Notes under the pieces: generated by a model
Told to the model about the DNA's origin: nothing
The model's input: the letters and a program-made list of their open reading frames with translations, nothing else
The model's database searches: none
Translations under genes and position numbers: made by a program
Shown: one piece after another, positions 6,751-31,907 of the stretch
Layout: each line of letters opens with the position of its first letter
Position numbering within the stretch: position 1 is the first letter of the stretch
Source of the DNA: Candidatus Doudnabacteria bacterium
GTDB lineage: Bacteria > Patescibacteriota > Doudnabacteria > UBA920 > O2-02-FULL-48-8
NCBI GenBank assembly: GCA_039931165.1
Contig: JBDTSL010000002.1
Span: forward strand, 71,134-135,133
Direction of reading: 5' to 3'
DNA: 64,000 nt

Positions 6751-7517
6751 CCCTCCAGGTAAGCGGCTAATCCTGATAAAAATTCCTTCCTGGTCTCCAG
6801 TTGGCGCTTAACCCCTTCCCAGACCAGCTGTTTGGTATCGCGATCGAACACGATCTTATCCAGGATATGGCTTGAATTCACCACGTAATTGGCGCCGGAA
6901 TTGCCTTGTGTCGACAAAATCTCCAGGTCTTTATTGCCGAGGGCGGTATTTTTTTTGAGCATTTCCAGGATCGCCAGATTCTCCTCCTTGACCGCCCGCT
7001 CGGCAGCGGCGTATGCCCCGACCGCGGTTTGCCATTCGGATGACGAATAGACATCCGACATCTCGGCGATATAATTCCGGGTTTGCTCTTTCAGCACTGC
7101 CCGTCCGATGTCTTCTGTCTTCAGACCCAGCGCCAAAAGCAAGTACTGCCAAAGCGCGCGGTGGGCAGTGCCTTCCGGATCTTCCTGCCTTTTTTTATCC
7201 AGGATTTCTAAAGCGCTTTCGGCGGTCGGATCGTCTGATTCGGATAAATTGGCGATCGCGAAACGCAAAAATCCCGGATCGCCTTCTCTGGCGCCCAAAA
7301 AAGCCTCGGCCGCCAAAAATTTCTGGAGCATGAATTTTTTTATCTTCTCCGGCCTTGGTTTCGCTGCCTTTATCCGGATAACCGCTGGCCAGGCTTTTAT
7401 TTGCCGGCTGATGTGATCCATGAGCCATTCTATAAACTGTTCGCCCATGAATTGATCCACTGCCTGCTCGGGATTATTTATGATATTGGTATTGTCGGTT
7501 AGCTCATTCATGCTCAT
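6747..7517 (-). CDS. hypothetical all-alpha protein (possibly heme-oxygenase-like / PqqC-TenA-like fold)
   Basis: 256 aa, helical, Glu/Ala-rich. No diagnostic motif found; the fold guess is weak. Confidence 0.35.
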   Translation of the reverse strand: MSMNELTDNTNIINNPEQAVDQFMGEQFIEWLMDHISRQIKAWPAVIRIKAAKPRPEKIKKFMLQKFLAAEAFLGAREGDPGFLRFAIANLSESDDPTAESALEILDKKRQEDPEGTAHRALWQYLLLALGLKTEDIGRAVLKEQTRNYIAEMSDVYSSSEWQTAVGAYAAAERAVKEENLAILEMLKKNTALGNKDLEILSTQGNSGANYVVNSSHILDKIVFDRDTKQLVWEGVKRQLETRKEFLSGLAAYLEG

Positions 7518-10724: not shown

Positions 10725-11924
10725 TTAGAGAGAACTCAACGCGTCCGGTTTGACCTTGATTATTTTATCATCGCCCGAACGAACTGTTCCCCGTCCGTCT
10801 CGGTTGGATGTCGTGATATACAAATATCCGTCAGGTCCCAAAACCACAGCGCGTAAACGGCCATACGTCCCTTTCAGGTGTCCCACGAAAGCTGCGATCT
10901 TGCCATCCGAGCCCAATTTCGCTTCATAAAGAGCGGAGCCTTTCAACCCGCCAAAGAACAGGCTGTGATTGACATAAACAATTCCTCCCGGCGCCCAAAT
11001 GCTCCTGCCGGAATGTTTTATCGGTCCCACGGTTCCGGCTGCTACATTATCGCCGACGCTGTTTGGCCATCCGTAATTTTTCCCTTTTTCTATCAGATTT
11101 AATTCATCCTGACAGCAGTTGGGCCAAGTTGCTGAAGGACCGTGTTCCGTCTCCCACATCCGGCCCCTGTCGTCCCAGACAATCCCTTGCGGGTTGCGGT
11201 GGCCGTATGACCAGACCGCGGTTCCGAACGGATTATTCGCCGGGATCGCGCCGTCGGCTGTTAAGCGCAAAATTTTGCCGTTCAAAGAATTCAAGTCCTG
11301 GGCTGAATTCGGATTTTGCGCGTCGCCTGTGGTGATATAGAGCATACCATCGGGCCCAAAAGCCATCCGTCCGCCGTCGTGATAAATGGATGAAGCAATA
11401 TTCCCGATAATGACCTTGTCTTCAGTAAGCTTGTCGCCATTTAGCTTGAACCGGACGATCTGGTTCGTTTTGCCCGTGGTAGTATAGAATAAATAGATCA
11501 AAGAATTTTGCTCAAACTGCGGATGCAGGACCATGCCCATTAGTCCCCCTTCACCCACGTGCGCTACCGAAGGAATTGTTATGGTCGCCGGATGCGCGCC
11601 AATGCGCCTGATCGCTCCAGTCCGCTGAGTGACCATCATATCTCCCCCTGGCAGGAACACAATGTCCCAAGGAACATTCAGTCCGGTTGCCACAACCTGA
11701 ACCGGCCGAGCAGGCACGGGTGGTTTAACAACCGGCGGGGCTGATTGCGGAGATGTAGCGGAAGCGGTGGTCGGTTGAACGGGATCAGGCTGTTGGCCGG
11801 CAGGGACCGGTTGCATGGCTGTCTGGTTACAGCTGGCCGCAGTCAGTAAAACTAAGCCGGCGAGTAAAATAATTTTTTTTCCGGCGAAGCCGGATCCCGC
11901 TGGGCGGGACATTTTTATATTCAT
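10725..11924 (-). CDS. PQQ-dependent sugar (glucose/sorbosone) dehydrogenase family beta-propeller protein, secreted
   Basis: 399 aa; signal peptide/lipobox 'LLTAASC'; Pro-rich linker; 'GLNVPWDIVFLPGGDMMVTQRTG.IRRI' and 'HDGGRMAFGPDGMLYITTGD', 'YGWP' motifs of the soluble GDH/SGDH family. Confidence 0.75.
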   Translation of the reverse strand: MNIKMSRPAGSGFAGKKIILLAGLVLLTAASCNQTAMQPVPAGQQPDPVQPTTASATSPQSAPPVVKPPVPARPVQVVATGLNVPWDIVFLPGGDMMVTQRTGAIRRIGAHPATITIPSVAHVGEGGLMGMVLHPQFEQNSLIYLFYTTTGKTNQIVRFKLNGDKLTEDKVIIGNIASSIYHDGGRMAFGPDGMLYITTGDAQNPNSAQDLNSLNGKILRLTADGAIPANNPFGTAVWSYGHRNPQGIVWDDRGRMWETEHGPSATWPNCCQDELNLIEKGKNYGWPNSVGDNVAAGTVGPIKHSGRSIWAPGGIVYVNHSLFFGGLKGSALYEAKLGSDGKIAAFVGHLKGTYGRLRAVVLGPDGYLYITTSNRDGRGTVRSGDDKIIKVKPDALSSL

Positions 11925-23196: not shown

Positions 23197-26100
23197 TTAT
23201 TTCTTCAGCTTTTTCTTCTTACCCGCTTTATCGCCGGCAAATTCCAATTCTTTCACTTTCTCTTCGACTCGATCCGTGGTGGTCATTTCCCGCAGCTCGG
23301 CCGCGTCATCCAAGGCCAGTTTCTCGCCGATCAATTCCACGTTCAGGCACAACGATTGCAGTTCCTTGACCAAAACCCGGAAAGATTCCGGAACGTTCGG
23401 CTTCTTGATCGGCTCACCTTTTACGATTGATTCGTAAGTTTTGGCCCGGCCGACCACGTCGTCGGATTTTATGGTCAGCATTTCCTGCAAAGTGTGGGCG
23501 GCGCCATATCCTTCCAAAGCCCAGACTTCCATTTCCCCGAATCTCTGGCCGCCGAACTGGGCTTTGCCGCCCAATGGCTGCTGGGTGATCAGGGAGTAGG
23601 GGCCGGTGGAGCGGGCGTGCATCTTGTCGTCAACCAAATGATGCAATTTCAGCATGTAAATTATTCCGACCGTGACTTTTTCAATAAATTGCGTGCCGGT
23701 TTTGCCGTCATACAAATATACTTTCCCATCTTCCGGGTATCCGGCTCGCTTCAGTTCCGCTTTGATGATTTCTTCCGGCACACCGTCCAGAGCGGGAGAG
23801 GCGACTTTATAACCCAATTTTTTCGCGGCTAATCCCAAATGAGTTTCCAAGATCTGTCCGATGTTCATACGAGAGGCCACACCCAAAGGATTTAAAATAA
23901 TATCGACAGGTGTGCCGTCGGCCATAAATGGCATGTTCTCAACCGGGATGACCTGGGAAATAACGCCTTTATTCCCGTGCCGGCCGGCCATTTTGTCGCC
24001 AACCTGGATTTTCCGCAATACCGCCACCGAGACCTGGATCGAGCGGATAACGCCTGAAGGCAGTTTGTCGCCCTGCTCTCTGGAAAATTCGCGGATGTTC
24101 ACGACTTTGCCGTATTCGCCGTGGGGCAGGGTCAGGGAAGTGTCTTTTACGTCGCGAGATTTCTCGCCGAAAATCACGCGCAGCAGCTTTTCTTCGGCTG
24201 TCAGGTCGGTTTCGCCTTTCGGCGTAATTTTGCCGACCAAAATATCTCCGGCCTTGATCTGAGCGCCGACGCGGATAACGCCGTTCTCGTCCAGATCTTT
24301 GAGTTTTTCCTCGCCGACGTTCGGAATATCGCGGGTAATGATCTCAGGTCCCAATTTCGTATCGCGCAAGTCAACTTTAAAATCTTCTATGTGGATCGAA
24401 GAATAGCGGTCCTGTTCCACGACGCGGGAAGAGATCAGGATCGCGTCTTCATAATTTCCGCCCTCCCAGGACATGAACGCCACCAGCATGTTTTGTCCCA
24501 AAGCCAACTCGCCTTTTTCTATGGCCGCGCCATCGGCGATCGGCTGACCGGCTTTGATCTCCTGGCCTTTGGTCACGGTCGGGTGCTGGTTGATAGAGGT
24601 GGATGTATTGGAACGGATAAATTTCTGGAGCAAATATTCTTTTTTTCCGGCGGAGCCGGATCCGGCTTTGCCGGACTTGCTTGGCAAAATAATAATCTTA
24701 TCACCTGTCACGCTCAAAACTATGCCGTCGGTTTCGGAAATCACTACCTGGCCCGAGTCGTAAGCGGCTTTGGCTTCCACGCCGGTACCAACAACCGGAG
24801 AATCGGGTTTGATGCAGGACACGGCCTGGCGCTGCATGTTCGAGCCCATCAAGGCGCGGTTGGCGTCGTCATGTTCCAAAAAAGGAATAAGAGAGGTTGT
24901 GACCGAAATGATCTGCTTAGGAGAAACTTCGACGAAATCAATGTCAGCCGTTTCGGCGATCGAAGGTTCGGCGTTGACCCTGGCCGAAGTCCGCAGTTCG
25001 GTGAAAGAACCGTCCGGTTCGGAAAGAACAGTTGCTTGGGCGATAACCGTGAATTGCTCTTCGTAGGCATCCAAATACTGGATGTCGTCGGTCATCCGGG
25101 GTTTGATCTTTAAAGCGGCAAGAGTTTTGTTTAGTGATAATTTTTCGGCCGCTTCTTTGGAAATTTTCTCGCCGGCGCTGACCACCACTTCTTCATTCGC
25201 ATCGAGCAGATCAACTAAAGCCGTCTCTCCGACAGCAGCCTTGCCGTCATTGGCCACATTCTTTTTGACTTTGCGGTAAGGAGTTTCGATAAACCCAAAA
25301 TCATTGATCCTCGCATAGCTGGCCAAATGCGCCACCAGGCCGATGTTCGGGCCTTCGGGAGTGGTGATAGGACAGAGGCGCCCATAGTGGGAGCGGTGAA
25401 CATCGCGGACCTCAAACCCGGCCCGCTCGCGGGAAAGTCCTCCCGGCCCCATGGCCGAAAGCCTGCGTTTATGCTCGAGCTCGGCTAAAGGATTGGTCTG
25501 GTCCATGAACTGGGAAAGCTGCGAGGATGAGAAAAACTCCTGAATGACCGCGACGATAGGACGGACGTGGATCAGCTGGGCCGGGGTCACGGTCTCAATC
25601 TCAGCCAGTGACATCCTGTCTTTGGCAATCCTGCTCATGCGGGCCAGACCGACGCGGAATTTTTGCTGGATCAGCTCGCCGACCGCTCGGACGCGGCGGT
25701 TGGACAAATGATCGATGTCGTCCATGATTCCCTGGGAGTTGTTCAGACGGATGATCTCGCGGATTATGTCGGTTAGATCTTCTTTGGTCAGGATCCGGTC
25801 TTCGCGGTCTTTTACGTTTAGGCGCTGATTGAGTTTGTACCGCCCGACCTCGGACAGGTCATACCGGTCGGCATGAAAAAACATCGCTTCGATCAGGGAG
25901 CGGGCATTATCCACCGTGGCCAGATCCCCGGGGCGGATCCTTTTATAAACTTCCTTGTAGCCCTCATCGGCGGATTTTGACGGATCTTTTTCCAGAGTAT
26001 TTTGGATATAGCGCATGTCGGGGTTGGTATCGACATCGGCAAAAGCCGCTAAAATTTCTTCATCAGTCCCGAATTTAAAGACGCGCATCAGGGCTGTGAT

Positions 26101-26703
26101 CGGGATGCGGCGCTTGCGGTCGATTTTCACGCTGATCACGCCATTGAGGTCGGTTTCCACCTCGAGCCAAGCCCCGCGGTTGGGAATGATCTTTGCGCCA
26201 TACCAATTCCTGCCCCTGGCTGGTTCGCCTGTGAAGAACACGCCCGGAGATTTCACAAGTTGCGACACGACCACGCGCTCCACTCCGTTGATCACAAATG
26301 TGCCGCGCGGCGTCATCAATGGAAAATCACCCAAGTAGACATCTTGGGTTTTGGTCTTGCCTGTGACCTTATTGACCAGCTTTACCGAAACATACAGAGG
26401 CGCTTCGAAAGTCGTATTGCGCTCTTTGGCGGTTTTTTCGTCGTACTTCGGTTTATCCAAATAGTAATCGCCAAAAAACAATTCCAAATTCTTGCCGGTA
26501 AAGTCCTTGATGGAGTTGATTTCGGCAAAAAGTTCTTTCAAGCCCGTTTCCCACAACCATTTGTAGGATCGAATCTGCGATTCGATCAAGTTGGGCATTG
26601 CCAAAACTTCGTGAAAAGGAGTAAAAAACTTTCGGAGACCCTGTTGACGGTTGGGACCTGGCAAATTAAGGCTTAAATTAGCCATTTTTACTTTTTGAGG
26701 CAT
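23197..26703 (-). CDS. rpoB: DNA-directed RNA polymerase subunit beta
   Basis: 1168 aa; 'PNLIESQIRSY' N-terminus; 'GDKMAGRHGNKGV' rif-region/active-site motifs; 'EMEVWALEGYGAAHTLQEMLT'. Confidence 0.95.
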   Translation of the reverse strand: MPQKVKMANLSLNLPGPNRQQGLRKFFTPFHEVLAMPNLIESQIRSYKWLWETGLKELFAEINSIKDFTGKNLELFFGDYYLDKPKYDEKTAKERNTTFEAPLYVSVKLVNKVTGKTKTQDVYLGDFPLMTPRGTFVINGVERVVVSQLVKSPGVFFTGEPARGRNWYGAKIIPNRGAWLEVETDLNGVISVKIDRKRRIPITALMRVFKFGTDEEILAAFADVDTNPDMRYIQNTLEKDPSKSADEGYKEVYKRIRPGDLATVDNARSLIEAMFFHADRYDLSEVGRYKLNQRLNVKDREDRILTKEDLTDIIREIIRLNNSQGIMDDIDHLSNRRVRAVGELIQQKFRVGLARMSRIAKDRMSLAEIETVTPAQLIHVRPIVAVIQEFFSSSQLSQFMDQTNPLAELEHKRRLSAMGPGGLSRERAGFEVRDVHRSHYGRLCPITTPEGPNIGLVAHLASYARINDFGFIETPYRKVKKNVANDGKAAVGETALVDLLDANEEVVVSAGEKISKEAAEKLSLNKTLAALKIKPRMTDDIQYLDAYEEQFTVIAQATVLSEPDGSFTELRTSARVNAEPSIAETADIDFVEVSPKQIISVTTSLIPFLEHDDANRALMGSNMQRQAVSCIKPDSPVVGTGVEAKAAYDSGQVVISETDGIVLSVTGDKIIILPSKSGKAGSGSAGKKEYLLQKFIRSNTSTSINQHPTVTKGQEIKAGQPIADGAAIEKGELALGQNMLVAFMSWEGGNYEDAILISSRVVEQDRYSSIHIEDFKVDLRDTKLGPEIITRDIPNVGEEKLKDLDENGVIRVGAQIKAGDILVGKITPKGETDLTAEEKLLRVIFGEKSRDVKDTSLTLPHGEYGKVVNIREFSREQGDKLPSGVIRSIQVSVAVLRKIQVGDKMAGRHGNKGVISQVIPVENMPFMADGTPVDIILNPLGVASRMNIGQILETHLGLAAKKLGYKVASPALDGVPEEIIKAELKRAGYPEDGKVYLYDGKTGTQFIEKVTVGIIYMLKLHHLVDDKMHARSTGPYSLITQQPLGGKAQFGGQRFGEMEVWALEGYGAAHTLQEMLTIKSDDVVGRAKTYESIVKGEPIKKPNVPESFRVLVKELQSLCLNVELIGEKLALDDAAELREMTTTDRVEEKVKELEFAGDKAGKKKKLKK

Positions 26704-26991
26704 GCCTTTTAGTAGGAAAATTACTTAATAATTTATTAAACGATAAAATAATTCGCGGAAAAAATTAATCCCAGTAGAATTTGGCTAACATTAGCCATTA
26801 TATATGTTTCGAGGATACGAAACATATACCGAATTTCTTCTACAGGGCATAAAAACAACTCCCTTTTTCGCATATGCAAAAAAGAGCCGTCGTGGGCTAT
26901 ACTCTTATTAAATTAAATATCACTTGTGTATAATAAACTTTTTTAGAAAGTTGTCAAGTTTAGAGTTTTGAGACTTCGATTTTGAAAAAAC

Positions 26992-27017
26992 TAATTACGT
27001 AATTAAATATGTAATTC
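26992..27017. repeat. 26-bp terminal inverted repeat, left copy (taattacgtaattaaatatgtaattc)
   Basis: Exact reverse complement of 30615-30640; itself contains the palindrome taattacgtaatta. Confidence 0.85.
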
Positions 27018-27047
27018 AGTATATATTCGTTAGTATCCATTCTTAGA

Positions 27048-30000
27048 TTATTTGTTTTCCAGTCTACAAATTTCTAAATACGTTTGATTAACCATTTTAT
27101 CAATATTAATAATGGTTTTCTCATCAGAATAATTTTTATGTGCTAGTTTTGAAAAGTCAGATAGCTGTTTATGACGCTGATTGCTCTTAGAATATCGTGG
27201 AATAAAAACCGGAGGGCGAATCTTAAAGCTTCTTGAATCAGAGGAATTCGTAATAAACCTTTGGGTAATGGGCGCATTCAAGATTGCGCAGACAAAGTGT
27301 GCTTCGTCAGTAGAAATAAATTCTCCATCTTCTCTTTCACACATTGAAACAGCGTGATTTTGGAATACCGGGCGCTTTTTACCTCCCCAATCTGTTTCTA
27401 TTTCTTCTACAACCGCTGCCTGCCATTTTGTGTTATCGCGAAAAGTTACATATGTTTTTGCGAAGCTATATGCACCGACGCGCGCTAGTGCATAAAATTC
27501 CTTCTCCCTTTTGCCGATGATCTTCTCGTTATAGGCTGTCTGAGCTTCAATCGCCGCTTTATTATCGAGTATGTATTTAGCTAGATTGGGTGATTTCTTT
27601 CTTAGTTCACTAAGAATGAGTGGAACTCGAGTACTGAAAGATTTTTCATATGGAAAAGGTACGACAAATTCAGAATCTACATTGAGATGATACCTCTCGA
27701 TATTGATACCTTTTATTAAAGGATATACGAACATCTTTTCAAACAAAACATCCTGAGCGGGAATTTTATGTTTTGAATGTTCATTTTGATAGTTGTTTAA
27801 ATAGATCTCATTTTTTCTTTTTGGCATTTCATCGTCTATTTCAAAAAGAAATAGTTCTTGAGGGTAAAACTCAACTCCCTCTCTACCTATATAGCTAGAC
27901 TTACCGGAGATTACCCTGAATTGTTCTAAATCTTTGGATGAATCAGCGTACGAAAAGTTAGTGCTTCCTTTTATGCATTGCCCCATTAATTTATGCTCAA
28001 TCCTAAAAGAATCCCTTACTTCATCATAGCGGATATGTTCGTTAATTTTCTCTATCTTGTTACCAGATTTTTTTATAAAGAATGATACATCAATTCCTTT
28101 TTCGTAATCTGTAACTTTGTCGGAAATAAAATAGGTCAAAAATTTATGTTGTACGGGTTGAAAAGGATGTCCTGCCTTAGTCCAATCAAAGATATTTTGG
28201 AAATATAATCGTTCGCCATTAGAAAGATAGAAGTTTCGGAAACCCTCATAAGTCTGAAGGAGCATTAAGTTTTGTGGCATTAGGAATGCCAAGATGCCAT
28301 TTTTATTCAACCAGTTATCAGCCGCTACGTTAGCGATCAATGCACAGACGTTTAGATTTATGCCGCCAGTTAAACCATCGCCGGAAAATAGGTGGCGTTC
28401 AATACATAGTGATTTAATTCTGTTTCGATAACCTTCTGGTAAATTACGCCAATCAATCCAAGGAGGGTTTCCTACAATTAATTCAAATCTACCAAGGCTC
28501 GCAGTTGTGAGAAAATTAGTAACTATTCGCGCCCAAATACCATTCCATTCATTTTTTTCCAGATCAATAAATTTCTTTGCCAATTCATCAATTTTTTCAC
28601 TTATCTCTGGTATTAGTTCTTTTGAGTTGGCAAGACCCTTTATCTTTGTTGCAACTGCTGACCAGTCTAAAGATTTAATATCGTATTCAATCTCAGTCAT
28701 TGTCTGTGAAAAACGATCAGTATTTGAGACAACGCTTTTAGGTAAAACAATATCAATGGACCCCTTTAAGGTTTTAATGTGGTAACCAAGACACTCAACA
28801 TCTTTTATCTTCTGCGGTTCTGGTACATAAGATGAATCCCCGAGATAAATTGGGATATTAAAACGAATACCTTCTTCAATAAGATGTGCTGTATTTATAA
28901 AATAATTTACTCGACCTGTTAGAACCGACAAGGGATTAAGATCAATTCCTTTAACACGAGATAGTATCTCCTTTATTCTATCTGTACGATTTTCAGATTG
29001 CGTTTCCTCAAGAACTTTCTGAATGCCCACTATCAAAAAAGTACCCGAACCTGATGTTGGATCTAGCATCCTCCAATTATCCTTTTTCTTTAGTTGCGAA
29101 ATTGACTCCAGTACTAAGTTATCAGCTAGCCATGCTGGCGTGTAAAATTCTCCCAAACTATGTCGAACCTTTGAGGGCACAATATGCTGGTATAACTCTT
29201 TGAAGAGATCGTGTGTCCTTACTTGCTCATGCACAAGAACCTTATCCTCATATTTTGAAAGGACTTGTACGACTTCAACAATCTTTTTATGTATCTCTTT
29301 TGACCATTGTTGCTTTGATGCGTACCAAGAGAAATAATCACCCTCCAACAAATTGTTTATACCAATAGTCCTGAAGATCTCACCATCTTCAAGAGAGAGC
29401 ATTTTCATTTGAAGAACGGCTGAGTTGGCTTGAGCTATGTCACCAAATTCAAAAATGTTTTTATTAAAATAGATTTTACTTACCACTTTAAAAGCGATGA
29501 GCTTAACAATCAGAGCGTAGGTCGTTTGCAGAGCATAGAGGGCAAGGTATTCCTCTCTATTTGTCTTTATACCAACATCGATAGCAGTAGACAGTTCTTT
29601 GCGCCGGTCTTGCAGATCTCGTTGTTGAGAAGTGTCATCGTGAGATAGTTTGAAAAGCTCCTGCCACTCTTCAAACAACATTTCAGTCTTTGGTTTCATC
29701 TCATCGAGGAGCGTTTTGTAAAATACCTTTGTTAGTTGTTTTGCGAGATTGTCATCCAAAGGTTCACAAAAATCTCGAATTAAATTATCCGACGTGAGAG
29801 CTATCTGCTCCAATAGGATAATAGTTTTTACTAATCTATCTAATGAAGTTGGCGAAATGTCCATCCAAGCCTCTGTGTAAATTTGGCCACCCTCACTTCG
29901 GATAAACCTGCAAATAACACCATCAGTAACTAGGCCAAGATAATCTGTGGGGTTTTTTACATTTAGACCCCGCAGGTAATCTTCAAGCTGTGAGGAAGCC

Positions 30001-30380
30001 TTTTCTTTAAGTGTCGAAGTTTTTAGCTTGCTAGGATGTTTAAATTCAATAACAAATGCCCCGTACTTACTGTCGATTCTTCCTTGAGCAATATGCCTTT
30101 CTGTTCCGACGAATTTTTCTTTTTCAGGATAATACTTAAGACCAAGTTCGTTATTAATGAAGGAAAAAAGATTTAGTTCAAAACTGCTGACAACGGTTGC
30201 TTCATTTTCAGCAGTTTCGGAGCGCCTTTTAATAGCTAAAACAAGGCCCGGGAGCTTATTTCGATAGTCTGTAGAATATAATTTCTTAGTTACTGATTCA
30301 TTCATGATGTTATCTAACAAAATAGCGGCTAGTTTACCCGTTTTCTGATTTAATTCTAAACCAAATACGGCCAGACTCAA
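27048..30380 (-). CDS. Type IIG/IIL restriction-modification fusion enzyme (MmeI-family-like: PD-(D/E)xK nuclease + gamma-class N6-adenine MTase + TRD)
   Basis: 1110 aa, ~33% GC. N-terminal 'GRIDSKYGAFVIEFKHP' matches the MmeI D-x9-E-x-K nuclease motif; 'GEFYTPAW' motif X; 'MLDPTSGSGTFLI' motif I; 'GNPPWIDW' motif IV; long C-terminal target-recognition region. Confidence 0.7.
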   Translation of the reverse strand: MSLAVFGLELNQKTGKLAAILLDNIMNESVTKKLYSTDYRNKLPGLVLAIKRRSETAENEATVVSSFELNLFSFINNELGLKYYPEKEKFVGTERHIAQGRIDSKYGAFVIEFKHPSKLKTSTLKEKASSQLEDYLRGLNVKNPTDYLGLVTDGVICRFIRSEGGQIYTEAWMDISPTSLDRLVKTIILLEQIALTSDNLIRDFCEPLDDNLAKQLTKVFYKTLLDEMKPKTEMLFEEWQELFKLSHDDTSQQRDLQDRRKELSTAIDVGIKTNREEYLALYALQTTYALIVKLIAFKVVSKIYFNKNIFEFGDIAQANSAVLQMKMLSLEDGEIFRTIGINNLLEGDYFSWYASKQQWSKEIHKKIVEVVQVLSKYEDKVLVHEQVRTHDLFKELYQHIVPSKVRHSLGEFYTPAWLADNLVLESISQLKKKDNWRMLDPTSGSGTFLIVGIQKVLEETQSENRTDRIKEILSRVKGIDLNPLSVLTGRVNYFINTAHLIEEGIRFNIPIYLGDSSYVPEPQKIKDVECLGYHIKTLKGSIDIVLPKSVVSNTDRFSQTMTEIEYDIKSLDWSAVATKIKGLANSKELIPEISEKIDELAKKFIDLEKNEWNGIWARIVTNFLTTASLGRFELIVGNPPWIDWRNLPEGYRNRIKSLCIERHLFSGDGLTGGINLNVCALIANVAADNWLNKNGILAFLMPQNLMLLQTYEGFRNFYLSNGERLYFQNIFDWTKAGHPFQPVQHKFLTYFISDKVTDYEKGIDVSFFIKKSGNKIEKINEHIRYDEVRDSFRIEHKLMGQCIKGSTNFSYADSSKDLEQFRVISGKSSYIGREGVEFYPQELFLFEIDDEMPKRKNEIYLNNYQNEHSKHKIPAQDVLFEKMFVYPLIKGINIERYHLNVDSEFVVPFPYEKSFSTRVPLILSELRKKSPNLAKYILDNKAAIEAQTAYNEKIIGKREKEFYALARVGAYSFAKTYVTFRDNTKWQAAVVEEIETDWGGKKRPVFQNHAVSMCEREDGEFISTDEAHFVCAILNAPITQRFITNSSDSRSFKIRPPVFIPRYSKSNQRHKQLSDFSKLAHKNYSDEKTIINIDKMVNQTYLEICRLENK

Positions 30381-30436
30381 ACGAGTTTACTTCTTCCAAT
30401 TATTGATCCGACTTCGCCAAAGTCTTGTCTGACAAG

Positions 30437-30613
30437 TCAATTTTTCCAGTCTTTAATTATCAAATGCCTGCCCTGGAGTTTGACTACCACCTTCTGTTTC
30501 TCGCGCCAGCCGAGTTTTTCAATCATTTCTATAGGCAAAGTCACGGCTAAAGACTTCTTGCCAAGGCGAGTTATCTTGCGAATATTCTGTTCACTTTGTT
30601 TTCTGACTCCCAT
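30437..30613 (-). CDS. AbrB/MazE/SpoVT-type swapped-hairpin DNA-binding protein (58 aa), absent from the ORF track
   Basis: Hand translation MGVRKQSEQNIRKITRLGKKSLAVTLPIEMIEKLGWREKQKVVVKLQGRHLIIKDWKN. 'LAVTLPIEMIEKLGW...VVKLQGRHLII' fits the AbrB/MazE fold consensus. 56 nt upstream of the RM gene on the same strand. Confidence 0.6.
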   Translation of the reverse strand: MGVRKQSEQNIRKITRLGKKSLAVTLPIEMIEKLGWREKQKVVVKLQGRHLIIKDWKN

Positions 30614-30614
30614 G

Positions 30615-30640
30615 GAATTACATATTTAATTACGTAATTA
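30615..30640. repeat. 26-bp terminal inverted repeat, right copy
   Basis: gaattacatatttaattacgtaatta; exact reverse complement of 26992-27017; begins 2 nt upstream of the AbrB-like start codon. Confidence 0.85.
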
Positions 30641-30686
30641 AAAACCATTGCGATTTGCCTTTATTCTGGCATAATTTTATTTTTAA

Positions 30687-31907
30687 TCAAATCTCTACCG
30701 GCTGCCGCGGGCGGAGGGAAAGTCCGAACAGCAACAGGAGCATTCCCAAAGACGCCATGACCCAGCTCAAGCTCACTTTATCAGCCAAAATTCCAACTAT
30801 TATGGTGGGCAGGGTGGCCGCCACCTGGAGCAGGATATTCAGGGTCCCGTAAATCCGGCCGCGGAGATGCGACAGGGCATAAGTTTGGAGCAGAGAATGA
30901 CTGGGAGCGAATATATGAGCGTTAAAAAACCCGATGGCGAAGGCGATAATTGAATAATATACATACCTGTAAGTAAAGTATTCGATCAAAGACAAAGCCA
31001 TGATCATGGCGCCCATTCCGATAAATCCGGCAAAAATCAGAGTTTTTTTCGAAAAACGCCGCTCTTCTACACCCAAAAGCAGGGATCCGATCAAAATCCC
31101 AATTCCCAGAGGCGCGACCACAAGCAAAGAGCCTCTGTTCAAATTAATGCCGATCTCCTGCTGCATGAAAGCCGGCGCGATCGTGATCATCATGCCGTTG
31201 ACCACTTGAATCGCGATCAGGCTCATCAGCGGAAAATGCAGGGTTTTGTTTTCCAGCGCGTGCCTGATCCCTTCCATGATCTCATGCCAAATTTTGACCA
31301 ATGAAAAAGTATTATTCGTCTTTCTTTCCGGCGGCAAGGCAGGAAGGGATAGTGTCGCCAATCCGGCCAGGATCAAAAGAATAACGCCCAAAAAATACGG
31401 AGCGCTCTGGCCAAAAGCCAGGATTACCGGGCCAGCCGCGGCAAATCCCACGATCAATGCCACGCTTCCGGTAAAAGCAAAATAGCTGTTGGCAATTAAA
31501 ATCTGCTCCTTCGGCACCAACATCGGGATCGAAGGCGCTTCGGCGGGAATATAAAACTGATTCAGGGAAGAATACAGAAAAGTGATAATGATCAGGCCAG
31601 AAATATTGTCGCCGACCAAAAAATACAGACCAATGCTCGCGGCCTGGAGAAAATTTATTACGGTCAGGATCCATTTGCGGTCAAACCGGTCGGAAAAAGC
31701 CCCGGCTATGCTTCCAAAAAAAATCGTGCCCAGGCCGAACGCAATGATGATCAGCGAAACCGAAACCGACGAATTGGTCAGCTGAAAAACTTTGATCAGA
31801 ATGGCAAAGCTCAACAGGTAATTGGTCAGCTGGGAAGCAGCCTGTGAGATCCAAAGCTTGGTGAAGTCCCAGTTCTTGAGTACCGCCAAATATGATTTGA
31901 AGCTCAT
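30687..31907 (-). CDS. MFS transporter
   Basis: 406 aa, 12 predicted TM helices; N-terminal 'WDFTKLWISQAASQLTNYL' typical of the MFS family. Confidence 0.8.
   Translation of the reverse strand: MSFKSYLAVLKNWDFTKLWISQAASQLTNYLLSFAILIKVFQLTNSSVSVSLIIIAFGLGTIFFGSIAGAFSDRFDRKWILTVINFLQAASIGLYFLVGDNISGLIIITFLYSSLNQFYIPAEAPSIPMLVPKEQILIANSYFAFTGSVALIVGFAAAGPVILAFGQSAPYFLGVILLILAGLATLSLPALPPERKTNNTFSLVKIWHEIMEGIRHALENKTLHFPLMSLIAIQVVNGMMITIAPAFMQQEIGINLNRGSLLVVAPLGIGILIGSLLLGVEERRFSKKTLIFAGFIGMGAMIMALSLIEYFTYRYVYYSIIAFAIGFFNAHIFAPSHSLLQTYALSHLRGRIYGTLNILLQVAATLPTIIVGILADKVSLSWVMASLGMLLLLFGLSLRPRQPVEI

Follow-up and report, generated by a model that had tools for sequence, protein, structure and literature searches.

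The control of restriction-modification (RM) genes has been explained by helix-turn-helix (HTH) controller (C) proteins, together with antisense RNAs and autoregulation by the methyltransferase. To our knowledge, no well-described dedicated regulator exists for the single-chain enzymes of Types IIG and IIL. The C proteins have a single ancestry and share the Xre/lambda-repressor HTH fold. Their sites lie close to the ATG, their mRNAs are leaderless, no clear -10 box is found, their linkage to RM genes is not exclusive and the classes of binding motif track the protein subfamilies (PMC2632904). RM units with flanking inverted repeats have also been described, as putative 'transposon-like' mobile forms (Furuta et al. 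2010; PMC2853133). Here we describe a small gene from a Candidatus Doudnabacteria bacterium, lying in a stretch of 64,000 nucleotides that was analysed as a whole and is called the window below. It encodes a 58-residue protein of the AbrB/MazE fold, it stands upstream of a predicted Type IIG RM gene, and the two genes are bracketed by an inverted repeat.

Relatives of this gene stand first in line ahead of many restriction systems, and its product is therefore probably a non-HTH counterpart of the C proteins. We favour, with moderate confidence, a mechanism in which an autoregulatory AbrB-fold factor heads a Type IIG RM cassette. The gene, its fold, the insertion that carries it, the directional linkage of its family to RM genes and a selected, periodic upstream array are established; from these we infer that the small protein binds the array, regulates its own gene and controls the RM gene. 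The gene had already been annotated generically, the identical protein being present in NCBI as 'AbrB/MazE/SpoVT family DNA-binding domain-containing protein' from Candidatus Doudnabacteria. What appears to be new is the recurrent, directional partnership with RM genes and the periodic putative operator. Indeed, a full-text literature search for AbrB or swapped-hairpin proteins together with restriction-modification returned no description of an AbrB-type RM controller, the matches being mentions in reference lists or unrelated.

The small gene is an ATG-initiated open reading frame (ORF) on the minus strand (30437..30613), and its 58-aa translation is identical to that quoted in the initial annotation. 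As was stated there, the ORF was missing from the ORF track because of a 60-aa cut-off. The AbrB/MazE fold proposed at the same time is borne out both by a profile match above threshold and by a structural model that resembles MazE, AbrB-N, SpoVT and VapB. The Pfam family PF04014 (MazE_antitoxin, the SpoVT/AbrB swapped-hairpin family) matches residues 16-53 with E=8.2e-8 and a score of 32.5 bits (the curated cut-off being 24.7), and the same match is precomputed for most relatives of the protein. An AlphaFold2 (AF2) monomer model, built on an alignment of 57 relatives, has a mean pLDDT of 86.9 and a beta-beta-alpha-beta-beta core (strands 14-17 and 21-24, helix 28-34, strands 42-47 and 50-55). 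The best match of this model among PDB structures, as found by Foldseek, is MazE (1ub4_C, TMq 0.69, rmsd 1.7 A, prob 1.0). The first ten matches are all MazE, AbrB-N or SpoVT, and VapB antitoxins come next; TMq is 0.5-0.69 over these top matches. A profile search of the PDB from sequence only aligned residues 11-57 to residues 7-49 of AbrB-N, which is the whole N-domain, at a marginal E of ~0.04; such matches being marginal, the structure-based comparison was required. The protein is strongly basic (pI 10.8, 15 K/R against 5 D/E, net charge +10), which is consistent with DNA binding. It consists solely of the DNA-binding domain and, ahead of it, a basic arm of 15 aa at the N-terminus; the domain stops about 5 residues short of the C-terminus. 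No HTH family of Pfam or NCBIfam matches it. PADLOC and NCBIfam have no model covering it either, and on that ground a known defence-system component was ruled out.

The protein had been proposed as a 'controller or antitoxin-like partner' of the RM enzyme. In the type II antitoxin version, an AbrB/MazE-fold protein would neutralize a toxin, here the RM enzyme itself, by protein-protein contact. The closest Pfam and structural matches are indeed the antitoxins MazE and VapB, several database sources label relatives of the protein 'antitoxin component of MazEF', and RM systems behave as addiction modules (PMC2701414). However, with 58 residues and a domain that spans positions 16-53, the protein has no C-terminal toxin-binding tail, and most of its relatives are also just 55-63 aa long. 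No cognate toxin had been visible initially, and none has come to light since: no MazF, PIN or Doc gene lies beside the small gene in the window, and among the 25 families listed for 57 downstream genes of the family there is no classical toxin, just two long Fic proteins with a Fic_N domain. The net charge fits DNA binding and not DNA mimicry. In addition, the partners are unrelated enzymes of several RM types, which makes a specific protein-protein fit unlikely. We consider a role as antitoxin or direct inhibitor very unlikely. It is the controller half of the proposal that stands, in that the RM-leading relatives and the selected 12-nt array both point to a regulatory role.

The relatives of the protein fall into 261 clusters (90% clustering) in a large protein collection. 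The family is found in 238 of 185,579 GTDB species, almost all of them Patescibacteria of the Candidate Phyla Radiation (CPR), with several copies in some genomes. Its members are 55-63 aa long and conserved from the first residue to the last, R12, T25, P27, W36, E38, Q40 and D55 being invariant. The gene may be the first one ahead of ResIII and N6_N4_Mtase genes, ahead of a 142-aa gene followed by Z1 and a C5 methylase, or ahead of a Type III mod gene, DUF3800 and res; in yet another context, its stop codon is overlapped by the start of an MmeI-type enzyme. Pfam counts were aggregated over the first downstream genes (57 proteins) and over the second and third ones (71 proteins). The methyltransferase families are N6_Mtase (6 in first genes, 3 in later ones), Eco57I (6 and 3), MmeI_Mtase (5), N6_N4_Mtase (5 and 1) and EcoRI_methylase (2 and 1). 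Type I and nuclease-side families are HsdM_N (3), Methylase_S (3), ResIII (2 and 2) and HSDR_N (2), and DpnI, Tsp45I, Z1 and DNA_methylase occur once each. Methyltransferase ORFs were also screened for by their motifs, either [DNS]PP[YFWH] with a motif-I-like pattern or PC[QK] with ENV, the upstream side serving as the control. Within 4.5 kb, such an ORF is present downstream at 20 of 58 loci, on the same strand in 19 of them, and upstream at none of 63 (Fisher p=5e-8). Judged by its gene neighbourhoods, the family preferentially leads RM operons of many types (Type I, II, IIG/IIL and III), RM genes not being its sole partners.

In the window, the cassette is composed as follows, in the order of transcription of its two genes:

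30615..30640, minus strand: right arm of the inverted repeat, a putative operator overlapping the promoter; the minus strand reads TAATTACGTAATTAAATATGTAATTC, made of 12-nt GTAAT units and the palindrome TAATTACGTAATTA.
30437..30613, minus strand: AbrB/MazE/SpoVT-fold gene, 58 aa, putative controller and first gene of the cassette (Pfam, AF2 and PDB comparison).
30306..30436, minus strand: spacer from the AbrB stop codon to the probable RM start, with a palindrome and a promoter-like site.
27048..30305, minus strand: predicted Type IIG restriction-modification gene; the longest ORF starts at TTG 30380, the probable start is ATG 30305 (PADLOC, Pfam, motifs).
26992..27017, plus strand: left arm, pointing inward, a second copy of the putative operator, 30 nt past the RM stop codon.

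The two arms form a perfect inverted repeat of 26 nt that brackets exactly the small gene and the RM gene, and none of 100 shuffled sequences gave an inverted-repeat match of this quality. The region upstream of the small gene had been described as the palindromic right inverted repeat, and this is what is found: the right arm is identical to the left one at 26 of 26 positions and is separated from the ATG by 1 nt. Comparison with the family gives this arm a meaning. The 60 nt that precede the ATG were collected from 80 distinct family loci, and AT-rich upstream regions of other genes at the same loci were used as controls. The family regions usually hold direct repeats and palindromes. A direct repeat of at least 9 nt at a spacing of exactly 12 or 24 is present in 45 of the 80 (56%) and in 22 of 422 controls (5%; p=7e-26). 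In many family loci, as read by eye, the last 12-nt unit finishes 1-5 nt before the ATG. The unit varies with the protein: GTAATT pairs with the MGVRKQSEQ subfamily, to which the window protein belongs, TCAGTAAT with the GGG-loop subfamily (nine loci) and ACGTAATCG with the MGITKSGSS subfamily. Moreover, the array is better conserved than the gene it precedes. Between the window and locus L008, identity is 81% for the proteins, 70% for the coding DNA and 38% at third codon positions, whereas in the upstream DNA it is 93% from -30 to -1 and just 20% from -60 to -31. Similar contrasts between upstream and coding conservation are seen for the pairs L011/L023, L034/L064 and L028/L073. By these comparisons the upstream array is under selection. 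Since such arrays are selected and periodic across the family, the right inverted repeat of the window is the family's conserved cis-element. A known RNA element was ruled out by an Rfam scan of the intergenic regions, which gave no match at E<=1.

The position of the array bears on the promoter as well. Just 3 of 46 window genes (long ORFs) have a Shine-Dalgarno-like motif, and in many window genes, such as those starting at 11924, 34577 and 34972, a TATAAT-like -10 box ends 6-11 nt before the ATG. Leaderless or near-leaderless mRNAs thus seem to be the norm in this genome. Because its genes lack a Shine-Dalgarno motif and their -10 boxes often lie so close to the ATG, the promoter of the small gene must overlap the array.

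The partner gene is an ORF of 1110 aa (27048..30380, minus strand) with Pfam matches to Eco57I and N6_Mtase. It matches the PADLOC model REase_MTase_IIG from end to end (E=7.9e-159, profile positions 3-1068 of 1100). In the numbering of the 1110-aa, TTG-initiated form, it carries a PD-(D/E)XK-like motif (D103...E112-F-K114), motif I as DPTSGSGTF (440) and NPPW (638). By these signatures, the enzyme is a single-chain Type IIG restriction-modification protein, in which an N-terminal PD-(D/E)XK-like nuclease motif is followed by a gamma-class N6A methyltransferase and, towards the C-terminus, a recognition region. The homologues of the enzyme measure 1086-1090 aa, and for this reason the start is probably ATG 30305 and not TTG 30380; the spacer after the small gene would therefore measure 131 nt rather than 56 nt. 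The initial annotation was right about the common orientation of the two genes, and its distance of 56 nt is correct as far as TTG 30380, but not for the probable ATG. The spacer contains the palindrome CTTGTC-T-GACAAG at 30423-30435 and a promoter-like TTGAGT-16-TAGAAT at 30380..30353. In the closest orthologues of the RM enzyme, the place of the AbrB-fold gene is taken by an unrelated 58-60-aa HTH_17 gene (enzymes 79% and 55% identical) or is empty (76% identical). The presence of differing small DNA-binding genes ahead of orthologous RM genes is consistent with a replaceable regulatory slot. The HTH_17 proteins, of 58-60 aa, that replace the AbrB-fold protein ahead of the Type IIG orthologues are encoded at L122:1320-1502 and L126:2815-2991. 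At L126, a HARE-HTH/PDDEXK gene and a large serine recombinase gene are found just downstream.

In the mechanism that we favour, dimers of the small protein would occupy the GTAAT units of the 26-nt array, spaced by 12 nt, in a cooperative manner and over their own promoter. Binding would set the expression of the small protein itself and, by read-through, that of the RM gene. Since the enzyme is a single chain, separate transcription offers no way of postponing restriction until after methylation. Tight negative feedback might hold the enzyme at a low level, so that methylation would be favoured over cleavage when the cassette enters a new host, a step that we offer as conjecture.

Several observations weigh against this controller mechanism. 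A recognizable methyltransferase lies downstream at just about one third of the family loci. The other downstream partners are RadC, Fic, DUF3800, an Abi-like remnant (at one locus, L102, identified by eye) and housekeeping genes. In the window, the RM gene begins 131 nt downstream, with a promoter-like site of its own and no GTAAT array, so that its control by the small protein is perhaps just read-through, or absent. The promoter scan of the minus strand gave no sigma-70-like hit for the AbrB gene. The missing Shine-Dalgarno motif, taken up as a sign of special leaderless translation, is not diagnostic, given its rarity among the window genes. The argument from the regulatory slot is also tempered: HTH_17 is an excisionase fold as well, the proteins found in the slot can thus be excisionases, and one of the HTH_17 loci has a serine recombinase. 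Finally, the exact 25-mer TAATTAYGTAATTRAATATGTAATT is present at 29 metagenome loci, and a family gene is nearby in 4 of them. At the eight solitary sites with annotated neighbours, the recognizable genes are all housekeeping ones (such as an ftsW operon, secA, thrS, valS and relA/spoT). Because the 25-mer lies mostly away from any family gene, the motif is not private to the small gene, and the idea of the 26-mer as a private operator is weakened.

The sites without a family gene nearby (among L093-L121) are intergenic. The one at the ftsW-operon promoter overlaps the -35 region that goes with the extended -10 TGGTATAAT; others adjoin the 3' ends of secA and thrS, and another is next to relA/spoT. 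The solitary motif is often the full form, a palindrome of 36 nt, or carries extra 12-nt units. At about 13 of 18 distinct solitary sites (counted by eye), the motif is turned so that GTAATT points to a convergent gene's 3' end. At two orthologous relA-side sites, L110 and L116, which differ by one 12-nt unit, the motif is perfectly kept while the flanks have diverged, and this indicates a functional protein-binding site. Such sites could be those of a resident global or nucleoid-type regulator, the protein itself or another factor, that binds many chromosomal GTAAT arrays, the RM linkage in the window then reflecting co-transfer. This proposal would account for the 25 of 29 exact-motif loci that have no family gene nearby, for the annotated sites at the ftsW-operon promoter or the secA and thrS 3' ends, and for the perfect motif between diverged flanks at L110 and L116. 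Nevertheless, we judge it unlikely. The methyltransferase linkage is directional (20/58 against 0/63), the repeat motifs differ between protein subfamilies, as private operators would, the family is patchy (238 of 185,579 species) and sits in low-GC insertions, and the 64-kb window has the two bracketing copies of the motif only.

A separate observation concerns a metagenome contig of 3.3 kb (L117:1-3305), which consists almost wholly of degenerate 12-nt GTAA-type units, a satellite-like array.

The small gene and the RM gene occupy a block of 35% GC in a genome of ~50% GC, between rpoB (23197..26703) and a major facilitator superfamily (MFS) transporter gene (30687..31907). Three related Doudnabacteria loci (L090-L092; MFS proteins 74-75% identical) share the order ruvA-femAB-SLOG-tsaB-MFS-rpoB-rpoC, and there the MFS stop is ~110 nt from the rpoB start, compared with 3,983 nt in the window. 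In these relatives, the MFS stop codon and the rpoB promoter, TTGACAACTTCC, overlap; the homologue of this promoter sequence in the window, TTGACAACTTTC, is at 26957..26946. Junction alignment with L090-L092 delimits the inserted DNA to ~26958..30686, about 3.7 kb, and the window MFS frame now terminates at ATTTGA, with the stop codon at 30687-30689. By this comparison the cassette is a recent, horizontally acquired insertion. Its boundaries comprise the following elements:

26930..26957, minus strand: host rpoB promoter, TTGACA-16-TATTAT (11/12), kept in the relatives; it forms the left boundary of the insertion and lies outside the cassette.
26958..26991, no strand: 34 nt of inserted DNA outside the left arm; homology to the relatives resumes at TTGACAACTT, the rpoB -35 box (26957..26952).
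30641..30686, minus strand: 46 nt of inserted DNA between the MFS stop and the right arm, without counterpart in the relatives (junction alignment).

In the last of these segments, a weak promoter-like TTGATT-16-CAGAAT can be read by eye; its score falls short of the scan threshold. The two junctions have only TTGA in common, in a comparison with relatives 75% identical in the neighbouring protein. AAAAC abuts both arms, inside the inserted DNA. It was considered as a 5-bp target duplication flanking terminal repeats and rejected, because the inserted DNA continues past the arms, by 34 and 46 nt as placed by the relatives. At the right-hand junction (30687-30720), the cassette has replaced the last MFS codons: the window protein ends in ...LRPRQPVEI* and that of the relatives in ...IRPRDLTTS*, the codons of the relatives containing the rpoB -35 box.

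Other features of the rpoB side stand apart from the cassette. The rpoB leader (26687-26830) is ~113 nt longer than in the relatives. At its boundaries the extra DNA has two copies of the rpoB start region (GGCTTAAATTAGCCATT at 26670-26686, GGCTAACATTAGCCATT at 26783-26799), and it contains a hairpin with an 11-bp stem (26801-26811 / 26818-26828); in appearance it is a small insertion of its own, accompanied by a target duplication. Translation of rpoB probably begins with the ATGGCTAAT at 26685 (MANLSLN, as in the relatives) and not with ATG 26703. Between the rpoB promoter and the start, a G+C-poor hairpin followed by a T-run (26861-26886, minus strand), whose sequence is kept in L090-L092, is a possible attenuator or leader structure for rpoBC. 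It has no match in Rfam.

The inverted second copy that closes the window cassette (26/26) has parallels in at least two cassettes of close relatives (L008 and L021) and, in similar form, in two further ones. At L008, an inverted copy (22/24) lies past the MmeI-type gene, a 276-aa gene and DUF3800, and is followed by a terminator that is also duplicated upstream of the cassette. At L021, a second copy follows a Type III cassette of seven genes and directly precedes terminators and rsgA. At L011/L004, a copy of 41 nt at 83% is found past the C5 methylase, and at L102 the full 36-nt palindrome lies past the Abi-like remnant. Over all family loci, only a minority have a second copy, which may lie on either side and point either way. 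The inverted 3' copy is part of the cassette design, with a second operator, a roadblock, an antisense promoter or a cassette-end signal as candidate roles. Taken with the solitary sites, the second copies leave room for a trans-acting regulon, for a roadblock or insulator at gene ends and for a cassette-end or docking function.

Two of these loci deserve mention for their surroundings. The MmeI-type cassette of L008 lies between direct duplications, 23 nt long, of a terminator-like hairpin (aataatccgccggttttgttttt; 1900-1950 and 7080-7110), an arrangement similar to what is known from RM units as 'insertion with long target duplication'. At L004 (5850-5890; the same as L011), the cassette with Z1, the C5 methylase and the AbrB-fold gene is found ~110 nt past an apparent tRNA 3' end (GGTTCGATCC-type T-arm), which suggests tRNA-adjacent integration; it also adjoins a GIY-YIG gene.

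The arms may alternatively have to do with movement. The inverted subterminal GTAAT arrays would then be the ends of a mobile defence cassette, comparable to the binding arrays of a transposase or of Xis, and the AbrB-fold protein would bind them, or play an architectural part there, for a recombinase acting in trans or supplied by the cargo. A perfect 26-nt inverted repeat encloses exactly two genes of a recently inserted cassette. Inverted distal copies recur at cassette boundaries at L008 and L021, in a similar form at L011/L004 and L102, with ends that are conserved while the cargo varies. The L008 unit stands between its 23-nt duplications, the flanks of solitary motifs diverge within a few tens of nt (L100 compared with L105), and earlier work put forward RM units between inverted repeats as possible mobile forms (PMC2853133). 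However, no transposase, integrase or recombinase gene is found in or near the cassette. The repeats are not at the termini of an insertion whose junctions share TTGA only, the second copies are confined to a minority of family loci and have no fixed side or orientation, and the orthologous site at L110/L116 is stably kept, like a functional site rather than a moving element. Classification as a DDE-type transposon or mobile insertion cassette finds no support, since the repeats lie inside the termini, a transposase ORF is absent and the motif has just two copies in 64 kb. Carriage by a phage or plasmid was ruled out, neither relatives of the family nor the motif being present in viral contigs. 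A mobility factor is thus quite unlikely in our opinion. We would rate as similarly doubtful a broader view, in which the small protein and its inverted subterminal 12-nt arrays make up an unrecognized, exchangeable defence cassette of CPR bacteria, the protein serving expression and also marking, insulating or mobilizing the ends, with the solitary arrays as docking sites or footprints.

The 26-nt inverted repeat could, in principle, serve to flip the whole 3.6-kb cassette as an invertible, phase-variable segment. It flanks the unit perfectly, and inverted repeats at RM loci serve phase variation in other bacteria (discussed in PMC2853133). But there is no recombinase nearby, and family genes elsewhere carry the same type of motif upstream without a partner copy. 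Furthermore, with the putative promoter and operator situated within the repeat or at it, inversion would not separate them from the genes. This possibility is, to our mind, exceedingly improbable.

If the controller mechanism proves right, a second, unrelated fold would occupy the controller slot in hundreds of CPR species, ahead of RM systems of Types I, II, IIG and III, which would amount to convergent evolution. It would also open a way to study how bacteria that are ultra-small and hard to work with keep incoming restriction genes in check. With their variation, the operators and protein subfamilies amount to a natural collection of small repressor-operator pairs that are orthogonal to one another, and the conserved copies at cassette ends may help to explain the exchange of defence cassettes in these genomes.

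The closest functional parallel is provided by the C proteins, such as C.PvuII, C.AhdI and C.Esp1396I. Like the small protein, they are small and are encoded directly upstream of restriction genes and co-oriented with them. Repeated or palindromic sites (putative in our case) adjoin the start codon of their own gene, a clear -10 box is missing and the mRNA is probably leaderless or near-leaderless. As in the AbrB-fold family, their linkage to RM genes is non-exclusive and the motif classes follow the protein subfamilies. Nevertheless, the C proteins are HTH proteins while the small protein is a swapped-hairpin protein of the AbrB/MazE type without any HTH match, and it is not, by homology, a member of the C family. 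The C proteins have two C-boxes, the AbrB-fold family arrays with a period of 12 nt. Unlike those of the C proteins, the partners of the AbrB-fold family, on which it would exert regulation, include single-chain Type IIG/IIL, Type I and Type III enzymes.

The N-domains of the Bacillus transition-state regulators AbrB and Abh and of SpoVT have the same DNA-binding fold as the small protein, and AbrB and SpoVT are described as autoregulated. The small protein differs from them in having no C-terminal multimerisation or GAF domain. Its family is almost confined to the CPR, carries a basic arm (NIRK-T-K) that is conserved at the N-terminus and is found in mobile defence cassettes. Antitoxins of the MazE/VapB/PemI type bind operator repeats in their own promoters, and they include the best structural matches of the small protein (MazE 1ub4_C, TMq 0.69), which is distinguished from them by the absence of a C-terminal toxin-binding region and of a cognate toxin gene.

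As a unit, the cassette recalls those described by Furuta et al. (2010). Their Neisseria Type IIG case likewise has a 26/26 inverted repeat and no intact transposase gene, and their units, like that of the window, are inserted relative to an empty site in relatives. The window repeats differ from theirs in being subterminal, without a clear target duplication, and in that the repeat doubles as the conserved upstream array of the leading regulator gene.

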